The notes beneath the pieces were generated by a model, which saw only the letters and a list, made by a program, of their open reading frames with translations, was not told the origin of the DNA and did no database searches. Position numbers and translations under genes: made by a program. From positions 1-12,598 of the forward strand of contig JAAZEM010000207.1 of NCBI GenBank assembly GCA_012512265.1: DNA of 12,598 nt, in the 5' to 3' direction. How positions within the stretch are numbered: position 1 is the stretch's first letter; each line of letters begins with the position of its first letter. This stretch comes from Armatimonadota bacterium (GTDB taxonomy: Bacteria > Armatimonadota > JAAZEB01). Positions 618 through 9,553 of this stretch are shown piece after piece.

Positions 618-917
618 CTATTGGGGAATCAGCTCGGCTTCCTCCACCAGAAAGTTGGGACCATTCATGCGGCGTTCGGCGCGATCGAACAGCTCGTCGG
701 CGCGCCGCAAGTCAGCGTCGAACTCGCGGAGTGCAACCTCCATCGCGCGAATGCGGTGGAGCAGGCGGGCGTGCACGTCGGCAAGCTGCCTCGCCTCGAC
801 CGGATCCGGGACGGCACGGAGCATCCCCTCCCGGATCGAGGCATCTACCAGGTCTCGCATGGTTGCCGCGATGGAGATCAGTGTCTCATTCACCTGGCTG
901 CTGTGATCAGATAGCAT
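618..917 (-). CDS. Hypothetical 100-aa protein, predicted helical and charged (MLSDHSSQVNETLISIAATMRDLVD...)
   Basis: The ORF-track frame is trimmed to the internal ATG at 917-915 because a Shine-Dalgarno GGGAGGG (complement of 922-928) lies 4 nt upstream of it. No family recognised. Confidence 0.55.
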   Translation of the reverse strand: MLSDHSSQVNETLISIAATMRDLVDASIREGMLRAVPDPVEARQLADVHARLLHRIRAMEVALREFDADLRRADELFDRAERRMNGPNFLVEEAELIPQ

Positions 918-1186
918 ACGTCCCTCCCTCAATTTCCCCGGGTCCTCCCGAGATGGGCACCTGTCAGGCATCTGCTGTGCCATTCTTCCCCCTCCCAAGT
1001 GGGGCTAAACGCCCGTCATGGCTCATGGGATGCCTCCTGGCAGGCCCGGCAGCTCGTGTCAGCGGGCGCCAGAGCCGTTCGCCGGCAAGGGCAATGCCTG
1101 GGTGCGCCCGGCCAATGCCCCCTGGATAAGACGTCCGGTGGCCGTGCCCGGCCTCCCTGGAGAGCCCCGCAGGCCCGCTCCTTTCC

Positions 1187-1216
1187 TTGACAGGGCAACA
1201 GCCTCTGTGCTATACT
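1187..1216 (+). promoter_or_regulatory. Sigma70-type promoter P1: TTGACA (1187-1192), 18-nt spacer, TATACT (1211-1216)
   Basis: Exact consensus -35 hexamer and a near-consensus -10 at canonical spacing, inside a 600-bp intergenic region. The predicted transcription start is near 1223. Confidence 0.5.
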
Positions 1217-1390
1217 CGCGCCAACCAGGTGGGCGGCTGTCACTCGCGAGCGCGGCTGGGTGCCGTGCCCGTCACCGCTCCTTTCAGGGCCAGGAGTGGC
1301 GCTGCGAGCAAGGAGGTGCTCTTCGGACAGCCGGCCCGACCCCGATCAGAGTCCACAACGGATACCACCGCTGTCGGATGGTAACGGAAA

Positions 1391-1468
1391 ACCCGTCTAG
1401 CGAGAATAGAAATCCAGTGAGAGCAGCCGCTCGTACCCTTGACACCTTTTTGTGGGGTATGCTATACT
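1391..1468 (+). promoter_or_regulatory. Sigma70-type promoter P2 with an A-rich UP-like element: TTGACA (1439-1444), 18-nt spacer, TATACT (1463-1468); A-rich tract 1391-1435
   Basis: Same hexamers and spacer length as P1. The sequence ACGGAAAACCCGTCTAGCGAGAATAGAAATCCAG lies at about -60 to -38, a local AT-rich island in a GC-rich genome. The predicted start near 1475 leaves a 5'UTR of about 55 nt to the ATG at 1530. Confidence 0.55.
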
Positions 1469-1529
1469 ACCGCAAGCGTGTAGGGGGTAGGGGTGGCTTG
1501 CAGGCAGGGAGAGGCCTCAAGCCATCAAG

Positions 1530-2855
1530 ATGTTCATGACGTCGCGTCTTCACATTGCGCCGGGCCTGCGGGGCCGGCGGAGTTCGGAACCCGCAGCGGG
1601 CCATCGCCGCGCTTATCACAAGCTCCCGAAGCGCCGAAGGTGGACCTGGATAACCGCGTTGGCGTGCGCTCTGGCCATTGTTCTGCCAGGTGCCGCGCGC
1701 GCCGAACAGACGCCAGCCGAGTTGCTGGCCGATCTGGAAGCGGAAGGTTTTGAGAATCTGAGCGTCGAGAAGATCTCGGACGGCCAGGGCGTGGTGATCA
1801 CGTTCGAGAACCGCCGCTACCGGTGGGAGGTGGTTGGTCTGGGGGTTGCCCTGGGCCTTGCGACTGCCCACCAGGAGGGGCGGGTGATCCTGGTGCCGAT
1901 GCACACGGGGGTGCCGATGGGGCGCATCGAGGTGGATGCCTCTGATTACCGCGCCTTCCTCCGTGGCGAGCTGAGCGAGGAAGAGATCTTCTCGCGCATG
2001 GTGATATCGAGTGAGGCCGGGCCATACCAGCCGGGGCCGCACAGCAGCTCCTTCGGGAAGGTGGATCTCACCTTCGCGCCGGGCGTGCGGATTAACCTCG
2101 TAACGCCAGCGCCTCCGGGGGTCTTCCGGGGCGGGGAGCTGCGCCTGAGCCCTGGGGTTTACTCGAACTTGTGGCGCGGGCTCTCGTTCGATGCGACCTA
2201 CGTCTACCCGCTGAGTAGCAGCGAGCCGGTGGTTGGCCGCGCCACCGGAAGTATCAACGCGCGCGTGGGCACCGAGGGCTTTTTCCAGGCGCAGGCCGGA
2301 CGGCTCTCCGAAGGCCTGGATGGGTTTGCGGCCGCATTGGTGTACCCCAGCAAAGATGGGCGGCACCTGCTCGGGGCATCCATCGCGCAGGCGGCCTACC
2401 CGGGCTGGGATCGCACCGGTAGCTATCAGGCGTTTTGGACGTGGCGGCCGACGCGCTATGATGCCACGGCAACCTTTGCCTGGGGGAAGTTCCTGGCAGG
2501 CGACACGGGCTATTCGCTCACCCTGATCAGCGGCTTCAGGGAGAGCAACATCGAGTTCAGTTACACGAAGACATCGCTGAGCGAAGTTCTTGCCGCCGGG
2601 TTTACCGTGCCCCTGGGATGGGAGCGCCAGCCACGGCCCGCTCCAGTACGGTTTCGCTTCCGGAACGCGTTCCGGTTTATGTATTATGACGAGAACCCGC
2701 GTCCGCTGGACGGCGGGCTCTATGTTCCTTTCATGGATGGTTACCAGACGGCAATCCGCCGCTGGAACAGGGCCTATCTGCGCACTTACGCACACGAGTT
2801 GCGCGAGGCCGCTAAAAGATGGTTGCCTGCGGAGGTAACGGAATCGAGAGAGTAA
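1530..2855 (+). CDS. Secreted 441-aa hypothetical protein (signal peptide ...WTWITALACALAIVLPGAARA|EQ). It may be an outer-membrane or envelope beta-rich protein; a weak recollection of a YjbH/DUF940-like protein is unverified.
   Basis: High GC3 in this frame, whereas the antisense frame translates as Arg/Pro-rich junk. An N-terminal signal peptide is present. The sequence is rich in Tyr/Phe/Trp/Gly with alternating patterns (NIEFSYTKT, ATYVYPLSS). Confidence 0.75.
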   Translation: MFMTSRLHIAPGLRGRRSSEPAAGHRRAYHKLPKRRRWTWITALACALAIVLPGAARAEQTPAELLADLEAEGFENLSVEKISDGQGVVITFENRRYRWEVVGLGVALGLATAHQEGRVILVPMHTGVPMGRIEVDASDYRAFLRGELSEEEIFSRMVISSEAGPYQPGPHSSSFGKVDLTFAPGVRINLVTPAPPGVFRGGELRLSPGVYSNLWRGLSFDATYVYPLSSSEPVVGRATGSINARVGTEGFFQAQAGRLSEGLDGFAAALVYPSKDGRHLLGASIAQAAYPGWDRTGSYQAFWTWRPTRYDATATFAWGKFLAGDTGYSLTLISGFRESNIEFSYTKTSLSEVLAAGFTVPLGWERQPRPAPVRFRFRNAFRFMYYDENPRPLDGGLYVPFMDGYQTAIRRWNRAYLRTYAHELREAAKRWLPAEVTESRE

Positions 2856-2973
2856 ACTTCCGCCGGCAGCGCTTCCCGCCAGGGAAGTGAGTCACCGGTC
2901 GGACTTAGGCGGCCGGAATGGACGGCAGGAGATCGTGTGCGCAGCAGGCTATCGAAAGGAGATGAGCGAAAGC

Positions 2974-4410
2974 ATGGACTTCGCACGTTTTCGACCCAGA
3001 ACGGCAGTGCTCCTGACGTTGGGTGCCCTTGCCCTGGCCGCGTTGCTGGCTGGTGGCTGTGCGGCGCCTGACGACGACGAGCGCGCTCGGTTCGCAGTTG
3101 TCACCGGTGTGGTCCTGGATCAGAACAACAATCCGGTCCCCGGTGCCGTTGTCTCGGTGGTGCCCCCGCTTGAGGCGCCAGTGGCTGGCGGCCCGCTTGG
3201 CACCCGCAACTTCTTCGGGAGCCCCGGCCCGTTCGTGACCGGTCCGGATGGCCGCTTCTTCATCCCCGGCGTCAAGCTCGCCCAGTCGGCTTCCGATGTG
3301 GTGGTCCTGAACCTTCAGGCAACCGCTCCGGGCTTCCTCCCCGCTTTCGTCGTGGCGCCTGCGCCGGAGACGGGCACGATTCTTGGCCGCCCGTTTGTCG
3401 CCGGTGTTGAGACGCGCGACATCGTCATCACCCAGGAGACGGTGAGCAGCCTCGTCGCTCGCCTTGTTCCCCCTGGCCAGACGCAGACCGTTGGCTCCGG
3501 TGGAATCCAGAACCTCACCGTGCCCGTGGTTGATGCCGCAACGGGTGGCACGACGGGCAACGCGACCGTCAACATTCCCGCCGGTGCGATCTCCGGACAG
3601 CCGGTGCAGCTGGCTGTGACGGGTGTGACGGGCACCTCCCTGGCCTCCGTGGCTGCGCCCGCGCCGAGCCAGGTTCCGACGGTGGGCAGCCCGGCGGCTC
3701 CGGCGGCCAACGCCGCTCTCGGTTCGGGCACCGTTCCTGCGACGCTTCCGCTCGCGGGTATCGACATTCGCGCTCTGAACGCTTCGGTGAGCTTCACCGG
3801 CCCCAAGCCGACGGTTACGGTTCCGCTTCCCGCGGGCCTGATCGTCACGGGCCTCAGCTCGCGCCAGATTCCTGCGGACGCGCTGGCCGTGGTCTTCTTC
3901 AACGAGCAGCGTGGCGCATGGGAGCTGGTTCCCGGTGCGATCGTCAACGTGACCTCCACTCAGGTCACCTTCGCCATCGGTGAGTCGACGGGCACCTACG
4001 CCCTGATCGTCCCGGCCACCTGGACGCTGCCGGCGCCGGTGCAGACGGGCGAGAACGTCGTGTTCCCGCCGATCGCTGGCTTCAACGGCTACGTCTCGAT
4101 CGGCCGCATCAGCCAGTCGCTGGACTTCCCGACCGTGAGCGAACCGGTGGAGACGCTTCTCCTCAGCGCTTACGCGGCGCTCACCGGTGAAGTGCCCAAC
4201 GGGCCCTTCGTCGTCCAGGTGCCGCCCGGAACCACGACGGGCCGCTCGGCCAGCGAGGTGACGGCCACCGTGAGCGTGAACTTCGGAACCTTCGGCACCG
4301 TTCAGGGAACCCGGACGACCTGGCAGGTCGAGGATGTCGAGGTGCCTGAGGCGCCCGAGATCCCGCCGCACCTGCAGGGCCACGTCCAGGGTGGTGGCGT
4401 GGGCGGATAA
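2974..4410 (+). CDS. Putative lipoprotein, Thr/Gly/Val/Pro-rich, with an N-terminal carboxypeptidase-regulatory-like (CarboxypepD_reg-like) stretch. The alternative start is ATG 2962; the ORF-track GTG at 2887 is unlikely.
   Basis: The N-terminus MDFARFRPRTAVLLTLGALALAALLAGGCAAPDDDE has an n-region, an h-region and a Cys in a lipobox-like position. FAVVTGVVLDQNNNPVPGAVVSVV resembles the carboxypeptidase regulatory-like fold. The rest is long low-complexity T/G/V/P/A sequence predicted beta-rich. The gene sits 118 bp downstream of the 1530 gene on the same strand, so co-transcription is likely. Confidence 0.7.
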   Translation: MDFARFRPRTAVLLTLGALALAALLAGGCAAPDDDERARFAVVTGVVLDQNNNPVPGAVVSVVPPLEAPVAGGPLGTRNFFGSPGPFVTGPDGRFFIPGVKLAQSASDVVVLNLQATAPGFLPAFVVAPAPETGTILGRPFVAGVETRDIVITQETVSSLVARLVPPGQTQTVGSGGIQNLTVPVVDAATGGTTGNATVNIPAGAISGQPVQLAVTGVTGTSLASVAAPAPSQVPTVGSPAAPAANAALGSGTVPATLPLAGIDIRALNASVSFTGPKPTVTVPLPAGLIVTGLSSRQIPADALAVVFFNEQRGAWELVPGAIVNVTSTQVTFAIGESTGTYALIVPATWTLPAPVQTGENVVFPPIAGFNGYVSIGRISQSLDFPTVSEPVETLLLSAYAALTGEVPNGPFVVQVPPGTTTGRSASEVTATVSVNFGTFGTVQGTRTTWQVEDVEVPEAPEIPPHLQGHVQGGGVGG

Positions 4411-4426
4411 CGCTCGCGAGATATGA

Positions 4427-4448
4427 GCTTCCGCTTGACGGCGGAAGC
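4427..4448 (+). terminator. Hairpin GCTTCCGC-ttgacg-GCGGAAGC (8-bp stem), the first of two tandem hairpins after the lipoprotein gene
   Basis: Perfect inverted repeat 17 nt after the stop codon. There is no U-tract, so it probably acts together with the downstream hairpin. Confidence 0.35.
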
Positions 4449-4460
4449 GCCACTTCCCAC

Positions 4461-4497
4461 GAAGCCCCCGGGCGTTGCCCGGGGGCTTCGTGATTCT
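4461..4497 (+). terminator. Probable intrinsic terminator: GAAGCCCCCGGGC-gtt-GCCCGGGGGCTTC (12-13-bp GC stem) followed by GTGATTCT
   Basis: Perfect 13-nt inverted repeat followed by a weak T-containing tail, at the end of the 1530-4410 two-gene unit. Confidence 0.6.
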
Positions 4498-4641
4498 CCG
4501 ATGTGCCGTTTGCTCCATCTTCCCGAGGGGTAGGCCTCTACATTGGGAGTGATGGCCGAAACGGCGGCGAATCGGATGCACGAACGCAGAGCGCATTTCG
4601 CCTTCTGCCCGTTGATGCCCGGCTTCCGTAATGGAGGAGCG

Positions 4642-4872
4642 ATGCGGCGTAATCTGGGGATAGCTCTCGGTGTCGCGGCGGGTGCGATGGCAGGACTCTT
4701 TCTCGCCTCCCGGCGGGGGAAAGAGACGAGCGCCCGCCTGCGGGAGTTTGGTCAGGGCATGGCCAGGCGCGCGGCGACGCCGTTACACACGCTCGCGGCC
4801 GCCGCGCGGGTGTGGCACGCTGGCCAGGAGCCTGCCACCCGTGCGCCCGGGCCTTGCGAGCCCACACTATGA
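4642..4872 (+). CDS. Small membrane protein, YtxH-like (DUF948/YtxH family). The N-terminal Gly/Ala-zipper helix is followed by the motif ...LFLASRRGKETSARLRE...
   Basis: ATG 4642 is preceded by GGAGGAG (4633-4639). MRRNLGIALGVAAGAMAGLFLASRRGKETSARLREFGQG matches the YtxH signature (GxxxGxxxGAAxxLLFAPKSGKExRE). The C-terminal third is low-complexity. The ORF-track TTG start at 4543 gives an implausible N-terminal extension. Confidence 0.5.
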   Translation: MRRNLGIALGVAAGAMAGLFLASRRGKETSARLREFGQGMARRAATPLHTLAAAARVWHAGQEPATRAPGPCEPTL

Positions 4873-5141
4873 GCGCCTGCTGCGGAAGCGCGGGAAGTCT
4901 GCGGTTCCCCGTTCCGATGTGAGAGGATACCCCGCTGGCCTGAAGCAGGGGATGCCCCCCGAATGTGCCCCCGCCTTCTTCCGTGAGCTGCCACCGCGCG
5001 CGATGGAGAGGAGTCCGCTGAGAGGTGGCGAACGGATCATTTTGGGTGTGCCTCCCGGCGCGCGCGGAGCCTTTGGCGCGGGAGGGGCGCTCACGGCGTG
5101 CGGTCCGCCGGGCCAGCGACGCCCGCCACCTGGAAACGGGT

Positions 5142-6524
5142 ATGAGTGTCAACGCGGTGGAGTGGTTGGGGGTTGTGGCGGTCGTCACTCTGGTGGGTGT
5201 GGCTGGGGCGTTAGGGCACGTCGTCCTCGCAAGTGAATTAGGCCTGCTGAGTTACCTCGTCCTTGGCTTGATCGCGGTCGTGATCGCCCTTGGCATTGGT
5301 CATGTAGCCGTGGAAGTGGGTCGGCGTCACCAGCGGGAGATCAAGCGGCACAACGAGGAACTCGCGGCGCTGAACGCGGTTGCGGTGACTGCGAGCCGGT
5401 CACTCGAGCTCACTGCCGTGCTCCGTGATTGTCTGGACAAGACGCTCGAGGTGATGGGACTCGACGCGGGTGCGGTCTTCCTGGCCTCGCAGGGAGAGAT
5501 CGGATCGCTGGCGGCGCACCGTGGTCTGACGGATCACTTCCTGGATGGCCTCGCCCGAATGAAGATGGGCGAGAACGTTCCCGGATCGGTGATTTTGCCA
5601 GACTCCCCCTTGCTTACCCCGGATCAGGAGGGCGAGACGCATCGCGAGTGGATCCGGGCATCGGTGAGCGTGCCGATGCGCTCCGAGGGCCGCGTGGTGG
5701 GGACGATGTATCTCTTTGCGCGCGGCCATCGTGATTTCTCCCAGCGAGAGGTGCAGATCCTGGTGGCCATCGGCGACGTGATCGGCATGGCGGTGCAGAA
5801 CGCGAAGCTGCATGCACAGGTGATCGAACTCGCCGCGCGCGACCCACTCACGGGGCTATACAATCGCCGCCGATTCGAGGAGGTCTACCGCCAGGAGGTG
5901 GCGCGTGCCCGCCTCTATCGGGCGCCCCTGACCGTGGCGATGATCGACGTAGACTGCTTCAAGGAGGTCAACGATCGTTTCGGGCATGCCGTCGGGGATC
6001 GGGCGCTGGAAGCGATTGCCAGGATTCTCCTCAAGGGCCGCGCGATGGATGTTGCCGCGCGCTACGGCGGCGATGAGTTTGTCATCCTGATGCCAAACAC
6101 GGAGCTGCAGGGCGCTCAGGTGGTCGCGGATCGGATCCAGCGCGCCGCTCGTGCCGTGGTGTTTCCAGATATCCCGTACTATCGCCTCAGCCTCAGCATC
6201 GGCCTGGCAGATAGCTCTGCCGGCTATGAGGGCATTCTGGAGCGCGCGGACGCGCAGATGTATGCCTGCAAGCGGGGTGGGGCCAACCATCCGCTCTCCA
6301 CTCCCCGATCAGAACGCCCCGGACCGGCAAAGATGGAACACGGAGGGCATCCGCGTGCGCATTCGGGGGGCCTATCGGTGATCGCTCACTCCCACCTGGC
6401 GGCAGAGCGTCAACAGGGGGCAGTCGTTGCAGCGCGGCCGCTGGCCGGTACACACGAACTTCCCGAAAGGCACCAGGCGCTCGTTGATCTCCACCCAATA
6501 CTGCCGCGGCAGCCTCGCGCGTAG
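5142..6524 (+). CDS. Membrane-anchored diguanylate cyclase: two N-terminal transmembrane helices, a GAF domain and a GGDEF domain. The active-site motif RYGGDEF is intact and an RxxD I-site (RAMD) is present.
   Basis: The GGDEF-domain signatures are: DPLTGLYNRRRFEE, VAMIDVDCFKEVNDRFGH, GGDEFVIL and RADAQMYACKRGG. RxxD lies 5 residues before GGDEF. Hydrophobic helices occupy residues 8-60 counted from ATG 5142. The start was chosen at the first ATG preceding the transmembrane region, because the ORF-track GTG at 5025 adds an Arg-rich extension. A 78-aa low-complexity C-terminal tail runs into the convergent nth gene. Confidence 0.88.
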   Translation: MSVNAVEWLGVVAVVTLVGVAGALGHVVLASELGLLSYLVLGLIAVVIALGIGHVAVEVGRRHQREIKRHNEELAALNAVAVTASRSLELTAVLRDCLDKTLEVMGLDAGAVFLASQGEIGSLAAHRGLTDHFLDGLARMKMGENVPGSVILPDSPLLTPDQEGETHREWIRASVSVPMRSEGRVVGTMYLFARGHRDFSQREVQILVAIGDVIGMAVQNAKLHAQVIELAARDPLTGLYNRRRFEEVYRQEVARARLYRAPLTVAMIDVDCFKEVNDRFGHAVGDRALEAIARILLKGRAMDVAARYGGDEFVILMPNTELQGAQVVADRIQRAARAVVFPDIPYYRLSLSIGLADSSAGYEGILERADAQMYACKRGGANHPLSTPRSERPGPAKMEHGGHPRAHSGGLSVIAHSHLAAERQQGAVVAARPLAGTHELPERHQALVDLHPILPRQPRA

Positions 6525-9161: not shown

Positions 9162-9190
9162 CGGTATCGCCATTATAGCGGCGGCAAGGG
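9162..9190 (-). promoter_or_regulatory. Promoter for the Gfo/Idh/MocA-AKR-nth operon: TTGCCA (complement of 9185-9190), 17 nt, TATAAT (complement of 9162-9167)
   Basis: The minus strand reads ...CCGCTTGCCAtttccccttgccgccgcTATAATggcGATACC.... This gives a perfect -10 and a 5/6 -35 at 17-nt spacing, about 50 nt upstream of the ATG at 9108. It sits in a local AT-rich island. Confidence 0.5.
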
Positions 9191-9553
9191 GAAATGGCAA
9201 GCGGAGGGTATAGGCCATGACCGGGCGATGAACAGGCGCGCGGGCGCTGCATGCGCGCGACGCCGGCAAGCAAGGTCTCGAGTTCTTATCAGGCAGGCGT
9301 AACGCTCCGGCGTATTGGAGTGTGGAAAGGGCGCCAGCGCCCTTCTGCCAGCGTGTAAACCGGGGCGATAGCGTCGGGAGCGTGGGGGGGAGTCCGGAGT
9401 GGCATGGAGGATGCGGGTGGCTGGATGGATCTTCCTATCCCAAGCTCTCGCACGCGCGGGAGATGGCTTGTGACGCGGGCGGCTACCTTGGGAATGGATA
9501 GCCGCTGCGCCGCGTCCTGTCTGTCGGGGGCCTCGTGGAGGGAGGAGCGGGCA

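Follow-up and report, generated by a model that had tools for sequence, protein, structure and literature searches.

Tandem promoters that feed a single operon are familiar from Escherichia coli, where rrn P1/P2 and gal P1/P2 are examples. Here we analysed 12,598 nucleotides of DNA from an uncultured member of the phylum Armatimonadota (contig JAAZEM010000207.1 of assembly GCA_012512265.1; this whole stretch is called the window), in which two promoters, P1 and P2, precede an operon that starts with a yjbH-like gene. The pair resembles rrn and gal P1/P2: both promoters are of the sigma-70 type, point the same way and are separated by at most a few hundred base pairs that contain no terminator, so that either can feed the genes downstream. 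An initial annotation, made from the sequence alone, had seen in the interval either a discrete small RNA (sRNA) or a long regulatory leader under tandem P1/P2 control. Comparison with related loci led us to the following account, to which we assign a probability of roughly 70%: P1 and P2 form a conserved two-promoter module, a gene for a SIS-domain protein is missing from it in the lineage of the window, most probably through deletion, and P1 would serve there as the distal tandem promoter of the yjbH operon. The elements concerned, in window coordinates, are:

1187-1216, plus strand: P1, predicted sigma-70-type promoter with extended -10 (TTGACA 1187-1192, TATACT 1211-1216, 18-nt spacer)
1217-1244, plus strand: discriminator and initial transcribed region of P1, CGCGCCAAC..., moderately conserved
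1245-1351, plus strand: fast-evolving filler with the palindrome CTCGCGAG, the Shine-Dalgarno (SD)-like AAGGAGGTG and one arm of a proposed helix; position of the SIS gene in relatives
1352-1438, plus strand: conserved, putative control region of P2 (~85 nt), identity to locus L034 0.71-0.96
1372-1412, plus strand: core block of this region (41 nt), TGTCGG-N8-GGAAAAnCCGTCTAG-N2-AnAnnAGAAA
1439-1468, plus strand: P2, predicted sigma-70-type promoter with extended -10, proximal to the yjbH-like operon (TTGACA 1439-1444, TATACT 1463-1468, 18-nt spacer)

The coordinates that the initial annotation had given for the two TTGACA/TATACT pairs, their 18-nt spacers and their distance of 252 bp on the plus strand were all borne out. 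At both promoters TGC stands immediately before TATACT, which makes each of them TTGACA-N15-TGCTATACT, an extended -10 type with 15 specified positions. Only P1 and P2 match this motif in the window, and no match arose in any of 200 dinucleotide-preserving shuffles of it. A promoter scan of the 12.6-kb window returned four promoter-like sites, among which P1 and P2 each scored 11/12 with TG. Hexamers, a spacing of 16-18 nt, the TGn motif and a footprint with variable spacers, as expected of sigma-70 extended -10 promoters, were all found at P1 and P2. The earlier judgement that such a pair is very unlikely by chance holds, given the shuffles and its conservation across eight lineages; P1 and P2 are most likely genuine, strong promoters of the housekeeping type. 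The window also holds a third near-consensus promoter, TTGCCA-N17-TATAAT, at 9172-9200 on the minus strand.

The related loci (numbered with the prefix L) all come from uncultured Armatimonadota, and all TTGACA-N16-19-TAYAMT sites were listed in every fetched locus. The P1/P2 pair occurs in eight lineages, represented by the window, L001, L034, L002/L003/L008/L013 (the L002 group), L025, L004-L007, L009 and L030/L031, with the hexamers fixed and the spacer sequences variable. Every orthologous locus has these two promoters and practically none besides, and the pair is the sole one of its kind in loci of up to 21 kb. All 15 specified positions of P1 are unchanged in L034, L002, L004 and L030, and also in L025, where the spacer is 1 nt shorter; L009 has TGT instead of TGC. 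P1 is followed by CGCGCC in the window, L002, L025 and L034 and by close variants in L004, L009 and L030. All eight lineages with the pair keep the hexamers of P2, with T as the base next to the TG in L025. Across lineages ACYGCAGGCG or something close to it comes after P2, and then a conserved 5' untranslated region (UTR) and the yjbH start codon. L026 and L027 have a single promoter before yjbH, with the same hexamers as P2. In an Armatimonadota phylum whose transcription signals are little studied, TTGACA-N15-TGYTATACT is a footprinted example of strong promoters in uncultured members. In L030, a further TTGACA-N18-TATACT site (2797-2826, minus strand) stands back-to-back with P1 and faces a Multi_Drug_Res gene; this promoter type thus recurs at divergent genes in these genomes.

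The distance between the promoters differs among lineages, and the longer distances go with a gene in between. Where P1 and P2 are 759 bp (L002 group), 742 bp (L025) or 860 bp (L009) apart, we found a gene for a 204-aa GmhA-like SIS-domain protein between them (L002 2713-3327, L025 1686-2300, L009 2271-2885). The YjbH proteins of these three lineages are 63%, 64% and 54% identical, respectively, to that of the window. The gene is absent, with both promoters present, at 252 bp in the window and L001, 254 bp in L034, 156 bp in L004-L007 and 313 bp in L030/L031. The best NCBIfam matches of the SIS protein are phosphoheptose isomerase models (GmhA, E about 1e-35), and at ~123 bits they lie under the equivalog cut-offs (209-320 bits), so that the score does not fix the exact substrate; a sedoheptulose-7-phosphate isomerase is the probable product. 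The three SIS genes are 72-76% identical to each other, have a native GC content at third codon positions (GC3) and have diverged broadly in line with YjbH. Their 5' UTR distance from P1 is a normal 60-97 nt, and P2 follows 38-118 nt past their stop codon. In the SIS-bearing relatives P1 is the predicted promoter of the SIS gene, and P2 that of the yjbH-like operon.

By synteny, the SIS-less interval of the window corresponds to the slot that the intact gene fills in L002/L003/L008/L013, L025 and L009. In L002 and L025 the C-terminal tail of the SIS gene reaches into the conserved block that precedes P2, and the TAG of this block is the stop codon of the gene, whereas in L009 the gene ends ~70 nt before that point and leaves the block non-coding. 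Short AATCTGA-like tandem repeats stand between the SIS stop codon and this block in L009 (2900-2950). When the three SIS proteins were compared with the SIS-less intervals by tblastn, we obtained a 12-residue C-terminal match (E = 0.005), which falls within the block that is conserved as DNA anyway. The other matches lay in the E range of 0.02-0.04 and in Ala/Arg/Gly-rich frames. Among them, matches of SIS residues 34-62 to window positions 1243-1332 (E 0.035-0.043) were rejected on account of this composition, because they were not reproduced in L001 and because the SIS start codon would fall upstream of P1.

Two SIS-less relatives served as benchmarks for the rate of change: L001, whose YjbH is 95% identical to that of the window (third-codon identity 0.78-0.86), and the more distant L034, in which a small protein encoded to the left of P1 is 81% identical (third-codon identity 0.55). 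P1 itself (1178-1216) is identical to L001 in 39/39 positions. It directly abuts a hypervariable stretch, 1061-1177, with an identity to L001 of 0.35 and large indels. Beyond P1, identity to L001 is 0.89 over 1217-1300 (0.96 over 1217-1244), 0.81 with two 2-nt indels over 1301-1370, and 0.96 over 1371-1438. The corresponding identities to L034 are 0.79 (1217-1244), 0.66 (1245-1300), 0.45 (1301-1351), 0.71 (1352-1385), 0.81 (1386-1412) and 0.96 (1413-1438). That is, the middle ~110 nt (1245-1351) drift near the neutral rate, about as fast as third codon positions. No similarity was found between 1245-1351 and the intervals of L004 or L030 or the SIS-bearing loci. Between lineages, the block upstream of P2 is the only sequence that the SIS-less intervals share with each other or with the SIS-bearing loci. 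The interval had also been described as lower in GC (about 55%), which did not hold: 1217-1438 has 65.3% GC compared with 66.1% for the window, and only its last 100 nt (1339-1438) come down to 56%. The palindrome CTCGCGAG does stand at 1243-1250, as reported, but the window has two copies where 0.83 are expected, and L034 has lost it.

These comparisons suggest the following course of events. In the fuller module P1 would drive the SIS gene and P2 the yjbH-like exopolysaccharide/outer-membrane operon. In the lineage of the window, L001 and L034 the SIS gene would have been lost, most probably by deletion, leaving behind P1 with the first ~28 transcribed bases, ~110 nt in neutral drift (1245-1351) and the ~85-nt control region of P2. 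Transcription from P1 would then continue past P2 and into the yjbH operon, giving its transcripts a ~307-nt leader without conserved function. A role of P1 as distal tandem promoter is suggested because no terminator separates the two promoters and because P1 is intact while neutral sites have diverged by ~45%. All 15 specified positions of P1 are unchanged in L034 at a third-codon identity of 0.55, for which the neutral probability is 0.55^15, or about 1e-4; most likely P1 is still used and under selection. Of the two alternatives in the initial annotation, tandem P1/P2 control of the downstream operon thus appears to be the best-supported description of present function.

Whether the SIS gene was lost or gained bears on this history. 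In a neighbour-joining tree and in the distances of YjbH, the SIS-less L030 pairs with the SIS-bearing L009 (90% bootstrap), L004 stands closer to L002 and L025 than it does to the window, and the SIS-less lineages are not monophyletic; the tree is poorly resolved and too weak for counting loss events. On the opposite scenario the SIS-less tandem pair would be ancestral, the GmhA-like gene would have been inserted in some lineages and the window would have kept the original leader. We consider this unlikely. With such a tree, two gains could compete with three losses, the window retains no clear SIS remnant, and the way in which the SIS tail of L002 and L025 runs into the block and borrows its TAG, with L009 stopping short of it, looks as if an open reading frame had been fitted into an existing framework. 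But repeated gain of an orthologous gene of native GC3 at the same spot, each time at 60-97 nt from P1, is less parsimonious, the sister relation of L009 and L030 speaks against it, and the SIS-less intervals are of different lengths and have no sequence in common, which fits independent deletions and not one ancestral leader. Deletion is therefore the more parsimonious reading of the sequences, and loss of the SIS gene would probably have occurred more than once. If the gene once served by P1 is gone, P1 might also be a non-functional relic that has not yet decayed, with P2 alone of importance, as the single promoter of L026 and L027 might suggest. This is very unlikely: the deletion would predate the divergence to third-codon identity 0.55, over which no specified position of P1 changed, the DNA directly upstream of P1 has been scrambled relative to L001 while P1 has not, and two further SIS-less lineages have a perfect P1 as well.

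A product encoded in the interval would give P1 another purpose. It is quite unlikely, in our estimate, that P1 drives either a discrete sRNA, about 150-215 nt long, or a leader with a regulatory function, for example an attenuator or a riboswitch. P1 is perfect and selected with no protein gene behind it, conservation is moderate over the first ~28 bases transcribed from it, and 1231-1239 pair with 1423-1431 over 9 bp in the minimum-free-energy folds of the window and L001; the ends of this helix, however, erode in L001 and L034 without compensation, and the pairing was rejected. The Rfam covariance scan that the initial annotation had proposed matched no family in the interval: there was no match in the window at the gathering threshold, and at E up to 10 only chance-level matches to eukaryotic or CRISPR models appeared over 1000-1700. 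The same scan of six related loci gave nothing in the intervals and one unrelated transfer RNA only. ARAGORN found no transfer RNA or transfer-messenger RNA in the window, and a plasmid blastn search with 1000-1700 gave no match. Nor was the supposed structure of the interval confirmed. For 1223-1440 the z-score of the minimum free energy is -0.75, with a fold as good or better in 35 of 200 shuffles, and the z-scores of L001 (-1.37), L004 (-0.17) and L030 (+0.87) are not unusual either. The hoped-for compensatory base changes did not appear among the window, L001 and L034, where the RNAalifold covariation term was +0.8 with many broken pairs, a comparison of three sequences and hence of low power. 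Long-range complementarity of 8 bp with 1234-1241 does exist, but its partner GACAGCCG lies at 1326-1333 and not at 1325-1332, and it is at chance level (blastn E about 2); the helix is broken without compensation in L001, and its 5' arm is altered in L034 as well. No plus-strand terminator-like site was found between P1 and P2 in any lineage by a test for intrinsic terminators, with Rho-dependent or processed 3' ends outside its reach. Together with the central ~110 nt, which evolve neutrally and with indels, and the intervals of L004 and L030, which are unrelated in sequence, these results leave the sRNA or structured-leader reading unsupported, since the interval fails every general structured-RNA test applied.

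That the interval encodes a small protein, in a 46-codon open reading frame at 1260-1400 or in one that starts from GTG 1316, seems highly implausible. Such frames do exist, and 1316-1351 has the same length in the window and L001 as the two 2-nt indels compensate each other; frames are mostly open anyway in 65% GC sequence. Frames and stop codons differ in L034 and the peptides are unrelated, and substitutions in the conserved tail show no third-position bias. No open reading frame, reading frame or start codon is conserved among the window, L001 and L034, in agreement with the earlier statement that the interval contains no credible one. The earlier observation that the SD-like AAGGAGG (1310-1316) is followed by no start codon at the proper distance also stands, but the motif occurs twice against 1.3 expected and is conserved in neither L001 nor L034.

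Several points weigh against the account of gene loss and tandem promoters. With the tree as it is, two gains of the SIS gene could replace the three losses. Promoter activity, start sites and read-through are deduced from sequence. The window has no clear SIS coding remnant, and the 12-residue match does not prove a deletion. The motif AAGGAGGTG could be an orphaned ribosome-binding site of the SIS gene: it lies ~94 nt past the -10 of P1, and the relatives have the ribosome-binding site of their SIS gene at roughly 60-85 nt, which makes the position plausible, but its chance frequency and its absence from L034 make this not demonstrable, and we rejected it as evidence. Finally, that P1 has stayed perfect in three lineages without the SIS gene could point to a function of its transcript that lies beyond the reach of conservation tests.

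The second conserved element of the module is the core block at 1372-1412. Its CCGTCTAG starts exactly 46 nt before the -35 hexamer of P2 in all eight lineages that carry the pair; the block is unique in the window and absent from the single-promoter loci L026 and L027. Its conservation extends both to L009, where it does not code for protein, and to L002 and L025, where it codes for the end of the SIS protein; in the frame of the window it would read LSDGNGKPV followed by a stop codon. Conservation as coding sequence was rejected, as substitutions show no third-position bias and the block is non-coding in L009. An RNA element was likewise rejected, with a hairpin of only 4 bp and no covariation in a seven-lineage alignment. 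To us the block reads as a cis-element of P2 at the DNA level, with its centre roughly 70-85 nt before the expected start site. The A-rich, UP-like element that had been noted before P2 is indeed conserved, but it is part of this block, at about -63 to -103 relative to the expected start site, and lies upstream of the classical UP position.

Within the block, TGTCGGA-N15-CGTC combines a TGTC-type -35 with a -10-like CGTC at compatible spacing. The promoter consensus of ECF41, a group of extracytoplasmic function (ECF) sigma factors, is TGTCACA-n16(+/-1)-CGTC (PMC3426412), and many ECF sigma factors are present in the cultured Armatimonadota member Chthonomonas calidirosea, whose genes are non-operonic and dispersed (PMC4959169). 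The block resembles ECF-sigma promoters such as those of ECF41 in the TGTC-type -35 and the -10-like CGTC, but its -35 departs from the consensus at two of seven positions, GGAAAA in the would-be spacer is conserved like the flanks, and TGTC is absent in L009 and L030, so that the likeness is a lead only. A protein-binding site fits better than an ECF promoter because the GGAAAA in the spacer is equally conserved; the block is probably a regulator-binding site or an ECF-like promoter. To a more specific proposal we give a fairly low probability: the block may be the site or promoter of an undescribed Armatimonadota regulator or ECF sigma factor, or transcription from P1 across the block and P2 may itself be regulatory, through occlusion, interference or displacement of a factor, and so tune the exopolysaccharide operon. 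At its fixed distance from the promoter of the yjbH operon, the block could offer a handle for finding its regulator.

The promoters are flanked by the following features:

618-998, minus strand: small conserved hypothetical gene, divergent, for a conserved protein of ~99 aa; left syntenic anchor of P1
1469-1529, plus strand: 5' UTR preceding the yjbH-like gene, ~55 nt long when counted from the expected start site, with a conserved GGCAGGGAGAGGCC (SD) segment
1530-2855, plus strand: yjbH-like gene (PF06082 by Pfam match), first gene of the operon, ATG 1530

Homologues of the small protein adjoin P1 in L001, L002, L004, L034 and L035, and searches of Pfam and NCBIfam gave it no family match. 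Its real start is probably ATG 917, since the relatives start there, and the listed TTG 998 is likely wrong. The sequence ATTCTTCCCCCTCCCAAGTGGGGCTAAACGCC at 983-1016, in the 5' region of this divergent gene, is conserved in L001, L034 and L035 and is probably its promoter or leader. On the other side, conservation of the 5' UTR was read from an alignment of nine lineages downstream of P2. ATG 1530 aligns with GTG or ATG in relatives, whose gene callers chose starts ~20-40 codons later, and is most likely the start of the yjbH-like gene. The N-terminal ~35 residues are variable and are followed by a conserved RRRWTW signal-peptide region. No exact-match record of the 441-aa product was found, the gene callers having used later starts. 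Its match to PF06082 covers only profile positions 472-598 of 658 (E = 1e-05). The relatives of YjbH all come from metagenome-assembled genomes (MAGs) of uncultured Armatimonadota, and an identical locus is present on contigs Ga0116167_1000266 and ERZ795045 NODE-1209.

Gene order is conserved between window positions 1530-6524 and L002, L025 and L030, with yjbH-like, CarboxypepD_reg-like, YtxH and GAF-GGDEF genes; in Pfam searches of the window, a GAF-GGDEF diguanylate cyclase and a sulfatase were identified downstream of the yjbH-like gene. This order suggests an exopolysaccharide or envelope module linked to cyclic di-GMP. The cluster resembles the yjbEFGH/gfcABCD-type exopolysaccharide loci of E. 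coli in that its first gene matches PF06082 (YjbH/GfcD family), and it includes a diguanylate cyclase. It differs in that the family match is partial, the partner genes are others with no yjbE/F/G homologues identified, and the host is an Armatimonadota MAG. The slot between the promoters can be compared with GmhA, a D-sedoheptulose-7-phosphate isomerase with a SIS domain: the slot gene of the relatives best matches the GmhA models, and the window is without the gene.

The locus carries a caution. Textbook promoters around an interval free of open reading frames look like an sRNA or a riboswitch leader, and the relatives show a gene slot; what we found is a real promoter pair, ordinary in meaning. 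Measured against the tandem pairs of E. coli, P1 is similar in having a GC-rich discriminator, CGCGCC, but unlike both rrn and gal P1/P2 the two promoters would originally have belonged to two adjacent genes, their present distance being a by-product of the missing gene; the operon downstream is an exopolysaccharide/outer-membrane operon and not one for ribosomal RNA. The other close comparison is with internal promoters and with the scars of gene loss that leave an orphan promoter. P2 is internal in the relatives, where it follows the SIS gene, and the sequence of the window evolves like a pseudogene remnant. In contrast to such scars, no coding remnant is recognisable here, and the orphan P1 is apparently maintained by selection instead of decaying.

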